From: SAR116 cluster bacterium AG-426-A06
GTDB lineage: Bacteria > Pseudomonadota > Alphaproteobacteria > Puniceispirillales > Marisalimonadaceae
Direction of reading: 5' to 3'
Assembly: GCA_003210115.1 (NCBI GenBank)
Contig: QCNM01000001.1
Span: 13,510-77,509 of the forward strand
DNA: 64,000 bases
Below are positions 43,017 through 64,000 of this stretch, in pieces. The translations under genes and the position numbers were made by a program. The notes under the pieces were generated by a model, which made no database searches, was not told the origin of the DNA, and saw only the letters and a list, made by a program, of their open reading frames with translations. Within the stretch, counting starts at the first letter, position 1. Every line of letters begins with the position of its first letter.

Positions 43017-43860
43017 ACAACTCACCTCTTTTTGTTTTTAATTGAGGTGGAGCTGTTGGTCTATTCAAAAAAGCTTCAGCATCATTAGGGTTTAAAAATT
43101 TTAAACCAGCTTTTTTAATTTGATTATCTTTAAGTTTTTTTATAGGTGTATAACTAGGATGATGATGATCAATAAATGGATTGTTTTCAGCTAAATTATA
43201 ACAACATAATAATGTCCATCTTCTTTTATCTGAATTGTTTTTATCTGATCTATGTAGAGTATTACAATGAAAAAATAAAACATCTCCAGGGTCCATTTCA
43301 CAGTAAATTAGATCTAAATGTTTTTTAGCTTCTTCAACTCTTCTCAAGTCTACACCAACTTGTCCACTCTCTAATAAAGCATGATCAATTCTACCAATTT
43401 TATTTGAACCAGATAATACCTGCAAACAACCATTTTTCTTAGTACATTTATCAAGAGCAATCATTGCACTTGCCATATGTGGGAAAAGACAACCATTATT
43501 ATACCAATATCCATAATCCTGATGCCATTCCCAAGCACCACCTTCAAATGGTTCTTTTGCAGTAATTTTTGAATGATAATGATATACCTCACCTTCTAAC
43601 AAGTGTTCCATTGTATCAACCATTTTATAGGATCTTGCAACTGTACCATAGATGCTATCATCTGGATGATTCCAAGCAACCATCTTTGTTATTAATCCTT
43701 CAGAATCTTTTCTATCATAAAGATGTTTTTTAATATTTGTATCCTTATAGGATGCTTGCTGAATTAAACTTGTTTCTTCTTCATCAAAAAAATTTCTAAT
43801 TATAATAAAGCCTTTTTGATCAAATTCTTTTTTTTGATTTGAACTTAAAACACTAGCCAT
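43006..43860 (-). CDS. Phytanoyl-CoA dioxygenase (PhyH) family Fe(II)/2-oxoglutarate oxygenase
   Basis: 284 aa. WHQDYGYW (HxD) and the distal FFHCNTLHRSDKN. Confidence 0.8.
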   Translation of the reverse strand: MASVLSSNQKKEFDQKGFIIIRNFFDEEETSLIQQASYKDTNIKKHLYDRKDSEGLITKMVAWNHPDDSIYGTVARSYKMVDTMEHLLEGEVYHYHSKITAKEPFEGGAWEWHQDYGYWYNNGCLFPHMASAMIALDKCTKKNGCLQVLSGSNKIGRIDHALLESGQVGVDLRRVEEAKKHLDLIYCEMDPGDVLFFHCNTLHRSDKNNSDKRRWTLLCCYNLAENNPFIDHHHPSYTPIKKLKDNQIKKAGLKFLNPNDAEAFLNRPTAPPQLKTKRGELFKK

Positions 43861-55508: not shown

Positions 55509-56626
55509 TGACAATTTTAACAACTCACGTTGGATCATTGCCTAGAAGCAAAAAATTATCCGACCTTCTTTTTAAAAAAGAAAATAATAAAATTTATGAT
55601 GAGGACACATTTAATAAAGTTGTAAAAGACTCAGTTTTTGACATTGTAAAAAAACAAAAAGAAGTTGGTATTGATATTATATCTGATGGAGAGATGTCAA
55701 AAATTTCTTATGCAACCTATGTGAAAGATAGATATAATGGATTTGCAGGTGATAGTCCTAGAAATGCACCATCAGATCTCAAAAGATTTCCTAGCTATTT
55801 AAAGAAATTAGCCGAAAGTGGCGGAACACCAACTTATTCAAGACCTTGTTGTGTTTCTAAAATTTCTTCTAAAGGTGACAGTGAACTTATTGCTGATATT
55901 AAAAATTTGAAAAACGCTATGAAAAAAAATAATTTGTCTAAAGGATTTATGAATTCAGCTTCACCAGGTGTCATATCATTATTTCTTGCTAATTCCTTTT
56001 ACAAAACAAGAACTGAATATCTTGTAGCTATATCTGAAGCTATGGAAAAAGAATTTAATCTTATTGCAAATTCAGGATTATACTTACAATTAGATTGTCC
56101 AGACTTAGCTTTGTCTAGACATATGATTTTCTCAGAATTGAGTGACAGAAAATTTATAAAAATTGCAAATGAAAATATGGAAATTTTAAATCATAGTCTT
56201 CGTAAAATTGATCCAAGTATGTTACGAATGCATGTGTGTTGGGGAAATTATGAAGGTCCCCATATTGATGATATTTCAATCAGTGAAATTTTTGAAGTTA
56301 TAATGTCTTTTAGAGGTAATTATATTTTATTTGAATCTTCTAATCCAAGACATGCTCATGAATGGAAAATATTTAATGACTTAAAAAGTAAGATACCTGA
56401 AACAAAAATTTTAATACCAGGCGTAGTAGATTCTACAAGTAACTTTGTTGAGCATCCAGAGTTAATTTGCCAAAGACTAGAAAAATTTGTCAATATTGTT
56501 GGCAAAGAAAGAGTTTTAGCTGGATCAGACTGTGGTTTTGGTACTTTTGCAGGTTATGGTAATGTTGACGAAGACATTGTATTTGAAAAATTAAAGTCAA
56601 TGGTAAAAGCTGTAAAAAGTTTTTAA
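55508..56626 (+). CDS. Cobalamin-independent methionine-synthase-like (MetE C-terminal / UROD-fold) Zn methyltransferase
   Basis: 372 aa. TTHVGSLPR, MHVCWGNYEG (HxC) and GSDCGFG zinc-ligand blocks. The ATG overlaps the cupin stop (TAATG). Confidence 0.8.
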   Translation: MTILTTHVGSLPRSKKLSDLLFKKENNKIYDEDTFNKVVKDSVFDIVKKQKEVGIDIISDGEMSKISYATYVKDRYNGFAGDSPRNAPSDLKRFPSYLKKLAESGGTPTYSRPCCVSKISSKGDSELIADIKNLKNAMKKNNLSKGFMNSASPGVISLFLANSFYKTRTEYLVAISEAMEKEFNLIANSGLYLQLDCPDLALSRHMIFSELSDRKFIKIANENMEILNHSLRKIDPSMLRMHVCWGNYEGPHIDDISISEIFEVIMSFRGNYILFESSNPRHAHEWKIFNDLKSKIPETKILIPGVVDSTSNFVEHPELICQRLEKFVNIVGKERVLAGSDCGFGTFAGYGNVDEDIVFEKLKSMVKAVKSF

Positions 56627-56628
56627 AG

Positions 56629-57366
56629 TCAGCTTAATCTTTTTTTAAAATTTAAGTTAATCCATATTACAAACATTATGAAATATGCGTTTAAAACATA
56701 CCAAATAATTTCAAAAATTGATTTAAATTCATCTAAAAAATTTATGTTTAATGAATTTAAAAGTAAAATAAGTGATATAAATATTAAACCATTAGCAATT
56801 ATAGAGTTTTTTCTTTTATGATATTTATACCTCATAGGATGAATTACTTTAATAGGAATTACCTTTAATACTATTAAAATTACAAGTATAAATAAATTAT
56901 TCCAAACGTTTAAATCTAAAATCGATAAATAAATAATAATAATATTCCAAATAGAAGGAAATCCTATATACAAATAACTTTCAGTCATTACCTTTAAATA
57001 AGAAAATGAAAATAAAGAAATACTTAATATCAGTATCGGCAAAATAATTACAAATTGTTCAGGCACATAATTGAATTTATAAATAATTATACAAGGTATG
57101 AACACGTAGTTTATATAATCGACTATGCTGTCTAGCATTACACCATCAATATTAGGACAAAACTTTTTTACATTATATTTTCTAGCTAAATTTCCATCAA
57201 TGACGTCTATAAACAATGCAATTATAAGAAATAAAAAAGTTAAAAGTTTATCTTCATTTAATATTGAAATTATTGAAAAAAAACTCATTAAAATACCAGT
57301 TCCAGTCAACAAATGTACTAAATATGCTTTAATTACATTAATATTTAGATTTGAGTGTTTTTTCAT
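56629..57366 (-). CDS. pcs: Phosphatidylcholine synthase (CDP-alcohol phosphatidyltransferase family)
   Basis: 245 aa. DVIDGNLARK...DSIVDY motif, plus GFPSIWNIIII and IKVIHPMRYK blocks that resemble rhizobial Pcs. Confidence 0.8.
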   Translation of the reverse strand: MKKHSNLNINVIKAYLVHLLTGTGILMSFFSIISILNEDKLLTFLFLIIALFIDVIDGNLARKYNVKKFCPNIDGVMLDSIVDYINYVFIPCIIIYKFNYVPEQFVIILPILILSISLFSFSYLKVMTESYLYIGFPSIWNIIIIYLSILDLNVWNNLFILVILIVLKVIPIKVIHPMRYKYHKRKNSIIANGLIFISLILLLNSLNINFLDEFKSIFEIIWYVLNAYFIMFVIWINLNFKKRLS

Positions 57367-57430
57367 TATATTAATAATAAAATTAAATCATTTTGTTTAC
57401 AAATCAATTTGTTATCTAATAATAGTAGTT

Positions 57431-58483
57431 ATGAACAAAAAACTTGATGATTGTAAAAAAGAAATATTAAGTGATATTTCAAGAACAATATCCTTTAGGT
57501 TATGTTCTATAGGCGTTGATTTGGGCCTTTTTGAAGATTTATCAATAAATGGTCCCTCATCAAGCGAAGAAATAGCATCTAGAAAAAAATATAATGAAAG
57601 ATATGTCAGAGAATGGCTTTATGGAATTTCAAAGACTGGTTATATAGAATTTGATAGAAAAACCCGAAAAGCGTCAATTAACGATCAGTATAGTGAGTTA
57701 TTTAATAGTGAAGGTGGAAAGAACTCTTTTAAAGGTTTTTTCAAAGTAATTAATAATATGCTACTACCCTACGAAAACTTAATTAGTTCGTTTAAAAATG
57801 GTGGTGGTATAAAATTTGAGGAATATAATAGTGAATTTTGGAAAGGTTTAGACCTTACAGGTTGTTCTAGATATAGATCATTTCTTGTTCCGGAGTGGAT
57901 TGATCAAGTGCCAAACATAAAAGAAAAACTTGATAAAGGTGTAAAGTTTGCTGATTTCGGGTGTGGCACTGGTAGGTCAGCTGTTGAATTAGCTAAGAGG
58001 TTTAAAAATTCTAATTTCTTCGGTTTTGATAAATTTAAGCCAAATATTGAGGAAGCTAAAATCAATGCTGAAGCTGGCGATGTTACGACTAATACTTCAT
58101 TTCAGGTTTGGGATGTAGACAATGGAGGTCCTGATGATAAGTTTGATATTGCAGGAGCTTTTGATTTAATTCATGATTTACCTCATCCACAAGATGGTAT
58201 AAATGTTATCAAAAATTCTTTAAAACCAGGTGGTATCTTTTTACTAATGGATATTAAATGTACTGATGACCCGATTGACAATGATGATCCCATGGCTTTA
58301 TTCAAATTTGGTGCAAGCTTACATTTTTGTATGACAACTTCTTTAGCATATGAGGGTATAGGCCTAGGAACTGTAGGGTTACCCCTAAAAAAAGTTGAAG
58401 AGCTTTGCTTTAATGCTGGTTTCAAAAATGTTAAAGAAATAGATATTAATCACCCAATTAATTCTTTATTTCAAATTAGTTAA
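57431..58483 (+). CDS. Class I SAM-dependent methyltransferase with an N-terminal winged-helix-like domain
   Basis: ADFGCGTGRS motif I. The track ORF (57125..) begins antisense inside pcs; the ATG at 57431 (MNKKLDDCKK) is the plausible start. Confidence 0.8.
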   Translation: MNKKLDDCKKEILSDISRTISFRLCSIGVDLGLFEDLSINGPSSSEEIASRKKYNERYVREWLYGISKTGYIEFDRKTRKASINDQYSELFNSEGGKNSFKGFFKVINNMLLPYENLISSFKNGGGIKFEEYNSEFWKGLDLTGCSRYRSFLVPEWIDQVPNIKEKLDKGVKFADFGCGTGRSAVELAKRFKNSNFFGFDKFKPNIEEAKINAEAGDVTTNTSFQVWDVDNGGPDDKFDIAGAFDLIHDLPHPQDGINVIKNSLKPGGIFLLMDIKCTDDPIDNDDPMALFKFGASLHFCMTTSLAYEGIGLGTVGLPLKKVEELCFNAGFKNVKEIDINHPINSLFQIS

Positions 58484-58578
58484 TTTAAACAATTCAAATT
58501 TCACTCTGCAATCTAGTCTACAAATAATTATTCTTAAATTATTCATTTTGATCGTCTTGATAATAACTTTTGTAAAAT

Positions 58579-58881
58579 TTAATCTTTATTATTTGCTGAA
58601 ACTTTAACTACACCTTCGTAAGCAATTTCCTTAGGTGACAAAGAATTTGGAATACTATTAAATTGAGAAAGATAATTTCTTAACTTTTTCATGTGTTTTT
58701 CGTTTTCATATTCCCATATACTTGTAACTTGATTTTTTTGATCAACATTTTGTATCACTTTCATGTTAATTTTTAAATTAGAATTAGTTGATTCATTTGC
58801 TATCTTTTCTGACATTACAATGAACATATTTGCATGTTCAACACTTTGAAAAGTTCTTACGGTAAGTCTAATTATTGACAT
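58579..58881 (-). CDS. Small 100-aa protein, paralog family member P1 (possible ABM/Dabb-like alpha+beta fold)
   Basis: GAAGGTG lies 5 nt upstream of the ATG. It shares IIRLTVRTF.S.E....MFI ... SIWEYENEKHMKKL ... LSPK with the decayed copy at 59592-59890. Confidence 0.5.
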   Translation of the reverse strand: MSIIRLTVRTFQSVEHANMFIVMSEKIANESTNSNLKINMKVIQNVDQKNQVTSIWEYENEKHMKKLRNYLSQFNSIPNSLSPKEIAYEGVVKVSANNKD

Positions 58882-58897
58882 AAAAACACCTTCGCTA

Positions 58898-58968
58898 TTT
58901 CATCTTAATCATCTGATTTACTTAAATTTTATAGAATAATAATTATTCAGTCTACAATTTGATCTAAG
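58898..58968 (-). promoter_or_regulatory. Conserved intergenic element, copy A (palindrome AATCATCTGATT at 58907-58918)
   Basis: Near-identical to the copies at 61262-61332 and 62601-62668. It ends 14 nt upstream of the P1 start codon. Strand assignment is tentative. Confidence 0.55.
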
Positions 58969-59075
58969 ATTTTAGATAATTTAATTAAGTTTATTAAGAA
59001 AATCATATTGAATTTTTATTGATAATAATAAAATATGAATATGTACAATAATAAATAGTTGTATTGAATTTCAAG

Positions 59076-59378
59076 ATGTTTATAAGAATAGTTACTATAA
59101 AATGTCCAAATGAAAGAGCCAAAAAAGCTTTTAAGTTACTTAATAAAGAAGTTACAGAAGAGCAAATGAAAGTTGGTCTTTTAAAACAAACTACTGTTGA
59201 TGCATCTGAAACAAGTATTGTCTATGTAAAGTATTGGATATCAAAAAAACATTTTGATAAAGGTAGAAAAAATTGGCAAAAAACATCTAGAGAATTTAAT
59301 GATATGGGCGCGATTATTACAGCGGTAGGCGGAGAATCAGAAATTGTCATATCTGACGATTTTAAAAATAATTTTTAA
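59076..59378 (+). CDS. Small 100-aa protein, family member P2 (distant)
   Basis: MFIRIVTIKCPNERAKKAF...SIVYVKYWISKKHFDKG. It has the same length and beta-alpha-beta pattern as P1. The track starts at TTG 59064. Confidence 0.45.
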   Translation: MFIRIVTIKCPNERAKKAFKLLNKEVTEEQMKVGLLKQTTVDASETSIVYVKYWISKKHFDKGRKNWQKTSREFNDMGAIITAVGGESEIVISDDFKNNF

Positions 59379-59591
59379 TTTATGTTAACTTAACTTTATT
59401 TAAATTTTCCATTAGAAGATTTTTTTTAAATTTATAATTTAAATTCGCATTCGTCATCTAAATACTTTGTTGTCAGATGCATCTAAGCTTATTTCAATTT
59501 TTTTTAAAAATTGTTATCTTTAATAATCATAAAGTAATTATTAATTATAAAAGAGTATTTAATGTAATGGGAAGAATACGAAGCTAAAAAA

Positions 59592-59890
59592 AGATTCAGA
59601 AGAGTAATTACCAATACTTTTTTATCAGATGAAGATTGTGAAATGTTTATTATGGTTCTGAAACAACAGTAGCAAAACATATAACTAAATTACCCGATAG
59701 TGAATTAGAAATTACTAGATCGATAGAATCACCAAATATTATTTCTGTAATCTGGACTTTAAAAGATTATAAGCATTTTGATATTTTAGAAAAAATAGGT
59801 AATAAAATTATTAAACCATATAGAAAGAAACTATCGCCAAAATCAACTAGTATAAAAAAAGAATCTCTTTGTAGAATTTTAGGGAGATAA
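59592..59890 (+). pseudogene. Decayed paralog (P3) of the 58579-58881 gene: no start codon and one frameshift
   Basis: Frame a reads RFRRVITNTFLSDEDCEMFIM and stops at 59670. Frame b opens at 59642 and reads GSETTVAKHITKLPDSELEITRSIESPNIISVIWTLKDYKHFDILEKIGNKIIKPYRKKLSPKS...*, ending at 59890. Confidence 0.5.
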
Positions 59891-59922
59891 TGAAAAAAAT
59901 TTAGTTTTTCATTTAAGCTTTA

Positions 59923-60252
59923 TTAAACGGGTGCAGTAATTTTGATTTGAGCAGATGTTGCTTCAGATTCATAGTTATATACAAAAACACCTGCATATTG
60001 GTTTTCTTTAAATACAAAGGTTTTTTTTAAGTCTTCAATAAATTGATTTGACTCATTTTCAAACTTTTTTAATTTATCTATAGTGTTAAATTTAATAAAA
60101 ATTGAAAGGTCGCCTTCTTTACCTATCAATATATTAAGTGATTGAAAATTGAATTTAATTATCTGTTTTCCAAGATTGTCAGAACAAAATGATGCAGCAA
60201 CTTTAGCTTCAGTTATTGATGGAAATTTATATTGGAAAACTTTTGCGTACAT
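59923..60252 (-). CDS. Small 109-aa protein, family member P4 (distant), co-transcribed with the GAF protein
   Basis: MYAKVFQYKFPSITEAKVAASF...LSIFIKFNTIDKLKKFE. Only 10 nt separate it from the upstream gene's stop. Confidence 0.45.
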   Translation of the reverse strand: MYAKVFQYKFPSITEAKVAASFCSDNLGKQIIKFNFQSLNILIGKEGDLSIFIKFNTIDKLKKFENESNQFIEDLKKTFVFKENQYAGVFVYNYESEATSAQIKITAPV

Positions 60253-60262
60253 ATATTACCTA

Positions 60263-61084
60263 TTAAAGCTCGTCTAGCATTCCTTCTATAAGGTCATTAG
60301 CTTGTTTACCTTCAAGTGTGATATTATTCATTATTTTTGTATGTAGCCCCATTTTATCTTGAATTTTTTTTCCTTTATCCGTTAATTCTAACTTTGATTT
60401 TGCATTAATCCTACATAGATTATTTTCAATGAGTATTTCTTCAAAATCTTTTGATATCTCCATTCTGTTACATGCATAAATAAAATTTTTAAAAAAAATC
60501 ATGTCTTTTATACTTGTTTCTTGATTAAAAATATCTAAAGCATTTATTAATCTATCTGAAGTTAATTGTTTTTGGTCACTCATTAAATCTATTTGATGGG
60601 CGGCTTTTTTAATAAGCTTTTCAACTAAGTCAATTTTATCTTGTGATAATTCTTTTATTTTAGAAAATGTCATCATACAAACCATGCCAAGCGCATAGTT
60701 ATTTTTGTCAATGATAGGAAATCCTATATAACTTTTTACACCTTTCTCATTATTATGCGTTTTAGTAATTTCGTGTTTTGTAACATCAAAAGCAATTAAT
60801 GGTTTAGTGTCTAGTAAAACATGAGAACAGACGCTTCCGTCTTTAGGTCGCCGGGTATTTAAATTTTTAATTTTTTCTTCTTTAGACCAACTTTCAGCTA
60901 AGTAACATCGTTCTTTACTATCAAATAACTGAAACAAAACGGCTTCATAACCAGTAATATCTTTAGCTAACTCACAATAGATATTAAAAAGACTTGCTTG
61001 ATTAGAATCTATCAGACCAGTTCTTTCAACTGCTTCAGCTCTTCTTTCTTCATTATCTGGTAATTTTGCAGATATAAACTTCAT
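60263..61084 (-). CDS. GAF-domain protein with a helical, possibly winged-helix C-terminal region
   Basis: 273 aa. N-terminal PDNEERRAEAVERTGLIDSNQASLFNIYCELAKDITGYEAVLFQLFD...SVCSHVL...IGFPIIDKNNYALGMVCMM matches the common stand-alone GAF pattern. The C-terminus has NLCRINAKSKLELTDKGKKI (wing-like). Confidence 0.7.
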   Translation of the reverse strand: MKFISAKLPDNEERRAEAVERTGLIDSNQASLFNIYCELAKDITGYEAVLFQLFDSKERCYLAESWSKEEKIKNLNTRRPKDGSVCSHVLLDTKPLIAFDVTKHEITKTHNNEKGVKSYIGFPIIDKNNYALGMVCMMTFSKIKELSQDKIDLVEKLIKKAAHQIDLMSDQKQLTSDRLINALDIFNQETSIKDMIFFKNFIYACNRMEISKDFEEILIENNLCRINAKSKLELTDKGKKIQDKMGLHTKIMNNITLEGKQANDLIEGMLDEL

Positions 61085-61261
61085 AAAAAATAACTCTTCT
61101 AAAACTAATTAAATCGATCAAATTAAATATTCTAACTTTTATGTTATATATTCATATGATTATTAGAAAATAAATATACAACAAAAACAAGTTTATTAAT
61201 TAAGTACAAATATTTTGCTTTATTAAATTACAAATAAAATTGGTGAGATAAACTCATTTTT

Positions 61262-61332
61262 TTCCATTTTAATCATCTGATTTACTTATTTTTCATATAC
61301 TAATAGTTTTATAGTCTAAATTTGTTTTTAGA
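61262..61332 (-). promoter_or_regulatory. Conserved intergenic element, copy B (palindrome AATCATCTGATT at 61271-61282)
   Basis: TTCCATTTTAATCATCTGATTTACTTA, then 26 nt, then TCTAAATTTGTTTTTAGA. It lies about 175 nt upstream of the GAF gene on the minus strand. Confidence 0.55.
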
Positions 61333-61451
61333 ATGTGTGAAAAATAAAAAAAATATTTTCCATTTTCAGATCTAAAAAAATTAAAAATAGATGAGTATTT
61401 CTTTCTTATTTAGATCTTGAAATTAAGAAAGAATAATATTAAAAATTAGAT

Positions 61452-61592
61452 ATGTGTATTGGTTCAACAAGTATCCTCTCAACATTCTTATTATCACTAT
61501 CATTTGTCATTGTAATTTATAATTATTCAAGAATTAAGAATTATTTGACCAAACAATATACAAAATATTTTCCTCAAAAATCTAAAATTTAA
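61452..61592 (+). CDS. Possible 46-aa single-TM peptide
   Basis: My reading: MCIGSTSILSTFLLSLSFVIVIYNYSRIKNYLTKQYTKYFPQKSKI*. It is below the track length cut-off and has no homology evidence. Confidence 0.2.
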   Translation: MCIGSTSILSTFLLSLSFVIVIYNYSRIKNYLTKQYTKYFPQKSKI

Positions 61593-61614
61593 AACAATCA
61601 GAATAAATTATTAA

Positions 61615-61857
61615 ATGTTAAAAATTATTATTTTTTTAGTTCTTATTTTTACTATTATTTATTTAGTTACAAATTTTATCATGTACAAAAGAAAAAGTGG
61701 TCGTTTAAAGTTGATTATACCTATTGCATTTATATTAATAATTGTAGGGGTTATCTTTTTTATTTTACCAAGGTTTGGACTTAATCCTTTGGTTCTATTT
61801 CAAACTATTATTTCTAAAGTAATTCCATACCTTTCCATGTTAAGAGGTGTTATTTAA
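61615..61857 (+). CDS. Hypothetical 80-aa two-TM membrane protein
   Basis: ORF with two clear hydrophobic helices. Confidence 0.4.
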   Translation: MLKIIIFLVLIFTIIYLVTNFIMYKRKSGRLKLIIPIAFILIIVGVIFFILPRFGLNPLVLFQTIISKVIPYLSMLRGVI

Positions 61858-61883
61858 TGAAAAATATATAAAATACTTATGAG

Positions 61884-62453
61884 CTAAGAAATAGATTTGA
61901 TTTTATTTAGTTTAGATTTTTTAAATTCATTTAAGAAACCCTTTGGCAACTCTATTGCAGTAATTTTCCAATCAATACCTATTCGCTGAAATAATAAATA
62001 TATTTCTTGCTCATCTACCATATGCTTTATTCTAAAAGAATTGTGGTTTTTAAACTCCATTATTTTTATTCCACCTAATAATGTTTTTAAATTAGGTTTT
62101 GGAAGTTTTCTTGCCATTTGATTTTCTTGTAACAACATATTTAAACCTTCTGAATTAACGTATGTGTCTAGAATACTATCTACGATTTTTGACACAAAAC
62201 CTGTAATTAAAACACTTATACCACCTAAATTTTTGAAATCTTCATCTTTTTGAGATTCCTTTAGTAAATTAACATTCAAGTAATTTTTAAGGTTTTCTCT
62301 TAACTTTTTCCATTCAATATATTCTTTGAGTAGTGCCTTATCATTGTAATAAATACCTTTATGAATTTGATGTGTTGAATAAAGAGCTGAAAAGAAATAG
62401 GTAATTATTACTAAAACCGGAATTATTATAAGACTTATGAGTAATTTCTTCAT
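61884..62453 (-). CDS. DUF2939-like membrane-anchored protein
   Basis: 189 aa. An N-terminal TM, then IHKGIYYNDKALLKEYIEWKKLRENLK, which resembles the DUF2939 opening. Confidence 0.55.
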   Translation of the reverse strand: MKKLLISLIIIPVLVIITYFFSALYSTHQIHKGIYYNDKALLKEYIEWKKLRENLKNYLNVNLLKESQKDEDFKNLGGISVLITGFVSKIVDSILDTYVNSEGLNMLLQENQMARKLPKPNLKTLLGGIKIMEFKNHNSFRIKHMVDEQEIYLLFQRIGIDWKITAIELPKGFLNEFKKSKLNKIKSIS

Positions 62454-62600
62454 TAAGACATAATACCAAATTTAATTCTTTAGTAATCCAAATGTTTTTA
62501 ACTTTTTCTGTATCTTTTAAGAATAATTCATATTTACTGCTCATCAAACACAGAATGTTTTGAAGTAATTGTCTTAATGGCGAAGATAATCCTCTTGTTA

Positions 62601-62668
62601 TTCCATTTTTATCATCTGATTTAATATTTTATAGATTTCTAATTGTTCAATCTAGAATTTGTCTAAAT
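62601..62668 (-). promoter_or_regulatory. Conserved intergenic element, copy C (TATCATCTGATT at 62610-62621)
   Basis: TTCCATTTTTATCATCTGATTTAATA ... TCTAGAATTTGTCTAAAT. By my hand alignment it is about four-fifths identical to copy A over about 60 nt. Confidence 0.55.
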
Positions 62669-62870
62669 CAAATCTTTTTCACTATTCATTAGATATAATT
62701 ATAATGAACTACAATTTAATTTTTTTTATAGAAAAAATCGATGTATGAATACTTGATTTTAAAGTGGTTTCAAACTTAAAAAAAAGATAATATAAACAAT
62801 CTTTTATAATGATTGTATTGATGAATGGGAATAAATTTAAAATTTTAAAAGATTGGATTGTTAAAATTAA

Positions 62871-63749
62871 ATGAATAATAAAAATAATGATATGTTAAAA
62901 GCAACCGTTGATGTTATTAAAAATATAAAAAAAAATCTTAGTTTCACATTACTTGAGGTAGGTGCCGCTCAAATTCATCAAGATAAAGAACCTTTTTACC
63001 AGTTACTTGATTATTTTCCTTCTTCTAAAATTATAGGATTTGAATTAGATAAAAAGGTCTGCGACGATTTGAACGTAAATGCTCCCGAAGGAATAAAATA
63101 TTATCCTCACGCTCTAGGAGAATTTAATGAAAAGAGAAAATTATATATTACTAATCATCCTATGTGCAGCAGTCTATATGAACCAAACGAAAAATTAATT
63201 TCATTGTATAATAATTTAGAGGTTGCATATTTAAAGTCAAAATCAACACTAGAAACAATATCCTTAGACCACTTCTTAAAAATAAATAATATAAAATCAT
63301 TAGATTTTATTAAAATTGACGTACAAGGTGCTGAATTGGATGTTTTTAAAGGGGGGAAAAAAATCTTAAAAGATATTTTAAAAATTATTTGCGAAGTTGA
63401 ATTCATTCCTATTTACAAGAACCAACCTCTTTTTGGGGATGTTTGTAATTTTCTCAATGATTATGGCATTATGTTTAATAAGTTTTTAGGTCTTGCTGGT
63501 CGTTGTTTAAAACCTATTACTTTGAACAACAATCCCAATATTGCTTCACAACATTTTTGGACAGATGCAGTGTTTATACGTGATATACAAACTATACCTA
63601 AACTTGAAGACGATAAACTATTGAAACTAAGTTTACTTTCTTCAATTTATGACAGTCCTGACTTAGTTCATTATTGTCTCACTAGCTTTGATAAAAGAAA
63701 TTCCTCATCATTAGCATCTCAATGGATAAATCAATTAAATAATAAGTAG
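62871..63749 (+). CDS. FkbM-family SAM-dependent methyltransferase
   Basis: 292 aa with the DFIKIDVQGAELDVFKGG block characteristic of FkbM methyltransferases. Confidence 0.8.
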   Translation: MNNKNNDMLKATVDVIKNIKKNLSFTLLEVGAAQIHQDKEPFYQLLDYFPSSKIIGFELDKKVCDDLNVNAPEGIKYYPHALGEFNEKRKLYITNHPMCSSLYEPNEKLISLYNNLEVAYLKSKSTLETISLDHFLKINNIKSLDFIKIDVQGAELDVFKGGKKILKDILKIICEVEFIPIYKNQPLFGDVCNFLNDYGIMFNKFLGLAGRCLKPITLNNNPNIASQHFWTDAVFIRDIQTIPKLEDDKLLKLSLLSSIYDSPDLVHYCLTSFDKRNSSSLASQWINQLNNK

Positions 63750-64000
63750 ATTTAATTCAAACATGTATCTTTAATAAAATTTCTATTTGACAAATTTTAA
63801 TTTAATATAAATAGAAAATAGAGCAATAATAATTATAAAATCTAATATTACATCAGGTAAATTTGGTTGATAAGTAGTTTTTAATTAAATTTATTCATGT
63901 CATCTCCAGTACAAAAATTATTCTATAATTAGACTTAATTTATGAAGCTTTATCATCAAATAGCTTGAAAAACTCTTGTCAATAAATTTAGACCCATATA

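Follow-up and report, generated by a model that had tools for sequence, protein, structure and literature searches.

We examined a 1.7-kb interval of contig QCNM01000001.1 from SAR116 cluster bacterium AG-426-A06, in which four small genes, designated P1 to P4, lie close together on both strands. The window, that is, the whole stretch of DNA analysed, is 64,000 nucleotides (nt) long. A first-pass annotation had regarded the four genes as divergent paralogues that arose by local gene-family expansion and that form, together with conserved upstream elements and a neighbouring gene for a GAF-domain protein, an undescribed functional module. P1 (58579–58881, minus strand) and P2 (59076–59378, plus strand) are intact, divergently oriented genes for proteins of 100 amino acids (aa) each, and P4 (59923–60252, minus strand) is intact and encodes 109 aa; these three open reading frames (ORFs) were found exactly where they had been placed. 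The start of P2 was set by the starts of its homologues at the ATG at 59076, not at the TTG further upstream at 59064. P3 is a broken frame on the plus strand between P2 and P4. The GAF-domain protein is encoded next to P4 (60263–61084, minus strand) and consists of 273 aa, with an N-terminal GAF_2 domain and an uncharacterised C-terminal region of about 100 aa. We regard P1, P2, and P4 as real genes because marine metagenomes contain over 100 conserved homologues of each (163, 110, and 185, respectively). The three sets of homologues do not overlap, and none of them is named.

P3 had been described as a decayed gene at 59592–59890. Alignment to intact orthologues upheld the decay and moved the span to 59562–59890. 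Relative to intact orthologues of 109 aa, the window copy contains a TAA stop at codon 2 (59565–59567), a TGG to TAG change at codon 37 (59670–59672), and the loss of 1 nt from codon 38. With three such lesions it is therefore a genuine pseudogene, and not the result of a single sequencing error. A search for P3 relatives in genomes from 185,579 species gave 15 loci, which are part of a comparison set of 40 fetched loci (L001 to L040). The gene is intact in 11 of the 15 (109 to 111 aa, or 99 aa in L031). Of the 15 records, 14 carry the label SAR116 cluster or Alphaproteobacteria, and the remaining one is labelled as a Rhodobacteraceae metagenome-assembled genome. Independent disabling lesions were present in 4 of 16 copies, each from a different single-cell genome. 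In addition to the window copy, these are L023 with two stop codons (codons 9 and 70), L029 with two stop codons and a frameshift (codons 3, 37, and 90), and L030 with one frameshift (codon 45), a single lesion that could be a sequencing error in a single-cell assembly. The Trp-37 codon is disabled in two unrelated copies. These results show that the decay of P3 is recurrent. A P3-like tblastn match at 43555–43833 was discarded as spurious; it lies inside a PhyH dioxygenase gene.

The four proteins were compared with one another by Smith-Waterman local alignment, and each score was set against those of 1000 shuffles. Only P1 and P3 scored above shuffle level (z 9.5), with none of the 1000 shuffles reaching the observed score. 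The other five pairs fell within the shuffle distribution, the observed score being reached by 69 shuffles for P1–P4 (z 1.7), 322 for P1–P2 (z 0.4), 483 for P2–P3 (z 0.0), 648 for P3–P4 (z −0.4), and 681 for P2–P4 (z −0.5). In profile-to-profile comparisons with hhalign, the family of intact P3 orthologues matched the P1 family with a probability of 92.8% (E 3.9e-7, 85 columns), and matched neither the P2 nor the P4 family. Probabilities among the P1, P2, and P4 family alignments were below 0.3%, and across all family pairs other than P1–P3 they did not exceed 8%. P3 is thus the decayed relative of P1 that it had been taken for. The LSPK motif near the C-terminus, noticed earlier in both proteins, is also real: it is common to P1 and P3 and conserved in both families, and its SPK residues lie inside the profile alignment. 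The two proteins are only about 25% identical, and they are therefore old paralogues rather than products of a recent tandem duplication. A third member of their superfamily, a protein of 101 aa with 25–28% identity to P1 and P3, is encoded in L002 (547–852, minus strand; assembly GCA_000383115.1), about 3 kb from a P2 homologue. The P1/P3 family therefore has several dispersed subfamilies, of which P1 represents one.

For P2, an exhaustive HMMER search of 1.84 billion representatives with its profile recovered only 35 relatives. None of these has a recognisable domain, and one carries an unrelated Toprim tail and is probably a chimera. Judged from sequence, the four genes belong to three families, namely P1/P3, a narrow P2 family, and a separate P4 family. 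The proposed similarity of all four proteins, and with it the notion of four paralogues, could not be upheld. P1–P3 was the only pair above chance, P2 and P4 aligned no better than shuffled controls, and neither has a detectable relation to P1/P3 or to the other.

We then compared the surroundings of these genes with those of their homologues in the comparison set. In four contigs from close relatives (L037 to L040), P1 is 86–87% and P2 is 92% identical to the window proteins. By blastn these contigs are collinear with 58567–59374 of the window and then jump to 61586–61864. Their gene order is methyltransferase, P1 (minus strand), P2 (plus strand), and a gene for an 80-aa hydrophobic protein. 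The last gene, which lies at 61615–61857 on the plus strand in the window, directly follows P2 in the relatives at a distance of 14–24 nt, with 73–81% identity by tblastn. The stretch from 59375 to 61585 is therefore a 2.2-kb insertion/deletion difference (indel). Within it lie the dead P3, P4, and the GAF gene with 500 nt of upstream sequence, all of which are missing in L037 to L040. The junction falls within the last two codons of P2, which encodes 102 aa in the relatives versus 100 aa here, and is flanked by an imperfect AAAAAT..AATTT direct repeat. The 500-nt region itself (61085–61585) lacks a credible ORF as well as any Rfam match, and is unusually long given median spacers of less than 25 bp in this lineage. 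A wider Rfam scan, from 58300 to 63000, gave no credible match either.

The homologues of the four genes are dispersed. P3, P4, and the GAF gene occur together in L021 and L022, the two closest of the 15 P3 loci, and only there does P3 lie beside P4–GAF. Both loci share only 59484–61046 with the window, and the left-hand genes of L022 differ; P3–P4–GAF therefore appears to behave as a small cassette at different sites. P3 orthologues stand alone in L017 to L020 and L023 to L028; that of L018 comes after a high-GC sequence that has no coding signal and resembles rRNA genes (unconfirmed with Rfam). The divergent P1/P2 pair is kept only among the closest relatives. P1 homologues are found alone, between alcohol dehydrogenase and MAPEG genes in L008 to L012, and in yet other contexts in L013 and L036. 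The P2 homologue of L001 adjoins a beta-lactamase-family gene, and that of L002 has an aminotransferase gene on one side and an ABC transporter gene on the other. Assembly GCA_902577295.1 has P2 and GAF–P4 on separate contigs, 1 and 12, respectively. The expected array of four genes beside a GAF gene was thus not encountered elsewhere: homologues of P1, P2, and P3 are single and unlinked to GAF, except for P3 in L021 and L022. Nor does a local expansion by tandem duplication agree with the dispersed homologues, or with an adjacency that is due to a 2.2-kb indel without counterpart in close relatives.

On this evidence, we consider it probable that the 1.7-kb cluster arose when independent small genes of the P1/P3, P2, and P4 families were recently brought side by side, and that it is not a tandem array of paralogues, with the P3–P4–GAF segment lying between P2 and the 80-aa gene and with GAF–P4 as the only durable unit. 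The contrasting proposal, that four paralogues made by local duplication constitute one functional module with the GAF gene and shared upstream elements, can draw on the true paralogy of P1 and P3, on the joint occurrence of P3–P4–GAF in two other loci, and on two features described below, the common fold class of P1 and P4 and a 56-nt promoter-like element that precedes both P1 and the GAF gene. Against these stand the shuffle-level scores of P2 and P4, which are also undetectable profile to profile, the old split between P1 and P3, the indel status of P3–P4–GAF relative to close relatives, the single-copy, unlinked homologues elsewhere, and the lack of the element upstream of GAF orthologues in L003, L014, and L015. 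Taken together, we judge such a module to be very unlikely.

The pairing of P4 with the GAF gene fared differently. The GAF protein passes the gathering score of Pfam GAF_2 (E 6e-8, 33.4 bits, cutoff 28.6), its orthologues score between 28.6 and 36.4 bits, and the domain also matches PDB entry 4zmu, a diguanylate cyclase of P. aeruginosa (E 1.8e-7). The match to GAF_2 and 4zmu covers the N-terminal 140 residues, as in GAF one-component sensors; unlike such sensors, the window protein has neither GGDEF nor kinase nor any clear DNA-binding output. In its C-terminus, matches to the HTH_45 winged helix reached only E 0.006–0.058, and none was found in the C-terminus of the orthologues; these matches are only weak hints of a winged helix.

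The GAF and P4 genes are adjacent and on the same strand in the window and in L003 to L007, L014 to L016, L021, L022, and L032 to L035. Across these loci P4 is 59–93% and GAF is 35–90% identical to the window proteins, and P4 homologues within this range always come after a same-strand GAF gene. The pair is preserved in five flanking contexts. Convergent P3 lies downstream in the window, L021, and L022. An aldehyde dehydrogenase gene lies upstream in both L003 to L007 and L014 to L016, with the gene for a cNMP-binding protein downstream in the former and DGOK downstream in the latter. L032 has the ribosomal L21 gene upstream and glucokinase downstream, and L033 to L035 have an alpha/beta hydrolase gene downstream. 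In L003 and L014 the stop codon of GAF overlaps the start codon of P4 within the sequence TAATG; 2 nt lie between them in L035 and 10 nt in the window. Overlaps or tiny spacers of this kind are a hallmark of functional pairs that are translated together. From this adjacency and minimal spacing in five contexts, GAF–P4 is predicted to be a conserved, translationally coupled two-gene operon and the sole durable unit of the locus. The suggested linkage of P4 to the GAF gene was therefore well founded. We met no description of a GAF gene that is always followed by a small P4-type gene, and no literature search was aimed at this arrangement.

A few P4 homologues carry ACT_9 or Semialdhyde_dh annotations, which were set aside; they concern extra tails outside the P4 domain in sequences from short contigs. 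In P0254, P0284, and P0345, which come from short metagenome contigs, such tails consist of a C-terminal ACT_9 region like that of aspartokinases or of the N-terminus of an aspartate-semialdehyde dehydrogenase. The foreign tails probably stem from chimeric assembly or mark recombination junctions, and are not domain fusions.

The upstream elements that had been described as conserved correspond to a promoter-like repeat of about 56 nt, composed of TAGACT-N17-TATAAAAT and a conserved leader, AAGTAAATCAGATGATTAAAATGGAA. Three copies were found, all on the minus strand and all upstream of minus-strand genes. Copy 1 (58889–58944), in which TAGACT-N17-TATAAAAT is followed by AAGTAAATCAGATGATTAA, lies directly 5′ of P1; copy 2 (61253–61308) precedes the GAF start codon by about 170 nt; and copy 3 (62592–62647) is located upstream of a DUF2939 gene. 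The 12-mer AAATCAGATGAT occurs three times against 0.06 expected, and the 20-mer core of the repeat twice against 0.07 expected. The copy upstream of P1 is kept in L037 and L040. Conservation does not extend to more distant genomes, where the repeat was not found at orthologous GAF sites (L003, L014, and L015), and the 12-mer AAATCAGATGAT has no exact match in the 40 fetched loci. A leader peptide was considered, since the repeat embeds a mini-ORF (MIKMK/MIKME), and was rejected; its ATGs are not kept in L037 or L040. A scan for promoters and terminators was uninformative: shuffled sequences had more promoter-like sites, and no terminator was found.

These copies raise the alternative of a lineage-specific regulon, in which genes of unrelated origin would be co-regulated through the element before P1, GAF–P4, and the DUF2939 gene, and would thus operate jointly in a single condition. 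The uniform placement of the three copies, their excess over expectation, and the retention of the P1 copy in relatives all speak for it. However, P2 and P3 have no element, the GAF genes of other genomes lack it, AAATCAGATGAT is matchless among the fetched loci, the embedded mini-ORF is not preserved, and the element may be merely a duplicated sigma-70-type promoter. We therefore hold a regulon to be rather unlikely as an account of the locus.

The first-pass annotation had guessed at a dimeric ABM/Dabb-like fold for the four proteins, and structure predictions agreed for P1 and P4. The AlphaFold2 (AF2) model of P4 had a mean predicted local distance difference test (pLDDT) score of 76.5 and a predicted template modelling score (pTM) of 0.67, with strands at residues 2–9, 38–43, 48–55, and 83–91, and helices at residues 13–28, 31–34, 58–67, and 69–78. 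In the model of P1 (mean pLDDT 75.3) the order of elements is the same and the last strand is poorly resolved, so that both models have a beta-alpha-beta-beta-alpha-beta topology. The top Foldseek matches of both were dimeric ferredoxin-like/ABM proteins, with template modelling (TM) scores of 0.6–0.71. For P4, the best PDB matches were 2op5, 2od4, Rv0793, NIPSNAP, and ABM proteins (TM up to 0.67), and for P1 they were PA0709/ArqI (8eif, TM 0.71), 2op5, 2od6, and many ABM proteins. Matches common to the two models included 2op5, 2od4, PA0709, 2omo, Rv0793, LsrG, and other ABM proteins. Sequence identity of P1 and P4 to their structural matches was 4–23%. The models thus support, at moderate confidence, a predicted Dabb/ABM ferredoxin-like fold for P1 and P4, and P3 would share it by homology to P1. 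P2 fits only weakly: a crude hydrophobic-periodicity profile is compatible with the same order of strands and helices. At the turn between beta3 and alpha2, P1, P2, and P3 have a W-x(3-4)-[KE]H motif, which we take to resemble the ABM signature.

Curated family models did not reach these proteins. Scans of P1 to P4 against Pfam, NCBIfam, and PADLOC gave no significant family and no match above a curated threshold. Below threshold, NIPSNAP matched 13 of 29 P1-family members (best E 0.0045) and a Monooxy_af470-like model matched 3 of 26 P2-family members (E 0.06), while P4 and P3 had no curated-family match, even sub-threshold, in Pfam and NCBIfam. The family profiles of P1, P2, and P4 had no significant match among PDB sequences (best E 0.27), the P2 profile matching 2od4 at E 1.1. 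P1 and P4 therefore resemble the Dabb superfamily (a Pfam clan with ABM, Dabb, NIPSNAP, and EthD among its members) in predicted topology and in their length of about 100 residues, and stay below the thresholds of its curated models. For P1 and P4, any homodimeric barrel with catalytic residues or a pocket for a ligand is putative. The nearest structures are PA0709/ArqI (8eif, 8ecx) of P. aeruginosa and three dimeric ferredoxin-like proteins of uncultured marine organisms, 2op5, 2od4, and 2od6. ArqI is co-transcribed with gloA2 and acts in the glyoxal response, and is thus, like P4, a small ABM-like protein in an operon with a functional partner (PMC12274486).

The first-pass annotation had presumed a SAR11 genome. 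The records with the closest loci are labelled SAR116 cluster and are mostly single-cell genomes, and we saw no evidence for SAR11. Genomes of the low-GC SAR116 subclade are described as streamlined, with about 30.5% GC, median spacers of less than 25 bp, few pseudogenes, and few paralogues (PMC8547437); the GC content of the window, 30%, matches this subclade. Within the window, the stretch from 56001 to 64000 has a GC content of 0.24–0.26 versus 0.30 elsewhere, with long spacers and many small genes, and may represent the margin of a flexible genomic island. A gene for an FkbM-family methyltransferase (62871–63749) also lies in this low-GC stretch. At 57125–58483, the ORF listed with 452 aa is probably a gene for 333 aa with its start near 57482, whose product combines an Rv2258c-like winged helix-turn-helix domain with a class I methyltransferase; the longer ORF runs over a CDP-alcohol phosphatidyltransferase gene on the opposite strand.

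Small genes with low GC (0.24–0.26) and long spacers, in a segment that is present in some relatives and absent from others, could also be toxin-antitoxin or anti-phage defence pairs (P1/P2 and P3/P4) in a low-GC flexible region. This is highly improbable, however. PADLOC gave no match at E ≤ 0.1 for P1, P2, P3, P4, or the GAF protein, and the sole toxin-antitoxin match in Pfam was sub-threshold (PHD_like, E 0.03, in 1 of 29 P1-family members), so that none of these proteins matched a known system of this kind. Moreover, each of the genes is found alone elsewhere, and the folds predicted here, Dabb barrels, resemble those of enzymes or binders.

Several observations weigh against a juxtaposition of independent genes as we propose it. 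It is striking that as many as four small proteins, probably alike in fold, are encoded so densely within 1.7 kb, and P2 is probably also Dabb/ABM-like, as the weak hints above suggest. When distant relatives were added to raise the diversity of the P2 profile, this widened profile aligned in register with P1 over 76 columns (E 0.0048, probability 7%). It also matched P4, over the first 20 residues only (E about 0.005, probability 7–8%). At these values neither match was counted as homology, and together they are suggestive of a shared fold, not of paralogy; a very remote common ancestry of P1 to P4 within the Dabb superfamily is nevertheless conceivable. The fold assignment itself has Foldseek E-values of only 1e-3 to 1e-2 and moderate AF2 confidence (pLDDT about 75). 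The element shared by P1 and the GAF gene could mean co-regulation in this genome. The indel is either an insertion here or a deletion in the relatives. Finally, the biochemical role that we propose below for GAF–P4 is purely conjectural.

GAF domains are sensors of small ligands, and Dabb/ABM barrels are enzymes or binders of small molecules, such as cofactor-free oxygenases, LsrG-type isomerases, and haem degraders. On these properties we base a proposed mechanism for GAF–P4, which is probably the combination of a ligand sensor with a small barrel that acts as an enzyme or a binder: the GAF domain would bind a small ligand and the GAF protein would thereby sense a metabolite. P4, as a homodimeric barrel made in a fixed ratio with the GAF protein, would convert or bind this ligand, or would modulate GAF output through the C-terminal domain of the GAF protein. 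P1 and P2 would be stand-alone accessory enzymes or binders of small molecules with their own promoters, and P3, which decays repeatedly, would be dispensable. A more far-reaching reading, which we regard as possible but doubtful, is that GAF–P4 is an undescribed two-component module for small-molecule sensing or processing in low-GC marine Alphaproteobacteria, in which the Dabb barrel would be an obligatory GAF partner that makes, destroys, or presents the ligand, and which would move between genomic sites as a small cassette.

What appeared to be a rare family expansion in a streamlined marine genome is, on the interpretation that we favour, an indel-driven juxtaposition of unrelated small genes that share a very widespread fold, and the case for a new four-gene module is therefore removed. 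P1/P3, P2, and P4 are conserved, uncharacterised families of small proteins without a Pfam family. Of these, P1/P3 and P4 can now be placed provisionally in the Dabb/ABM fold class, as new members of a fold superfamily that was already known. The 2.2-kb cassette indel and the recurrent decay of P3 reveal small-scale gene flux in a lineage for which few pseudogenes and paralogues have been described (PMC8547437). The GAF–P4 operon is the sole part of the locus worth experimental follow-up, since the pair is a concrete, testable candidate for ligand sensing in an abundant ocean lineage that is so far uncultured.

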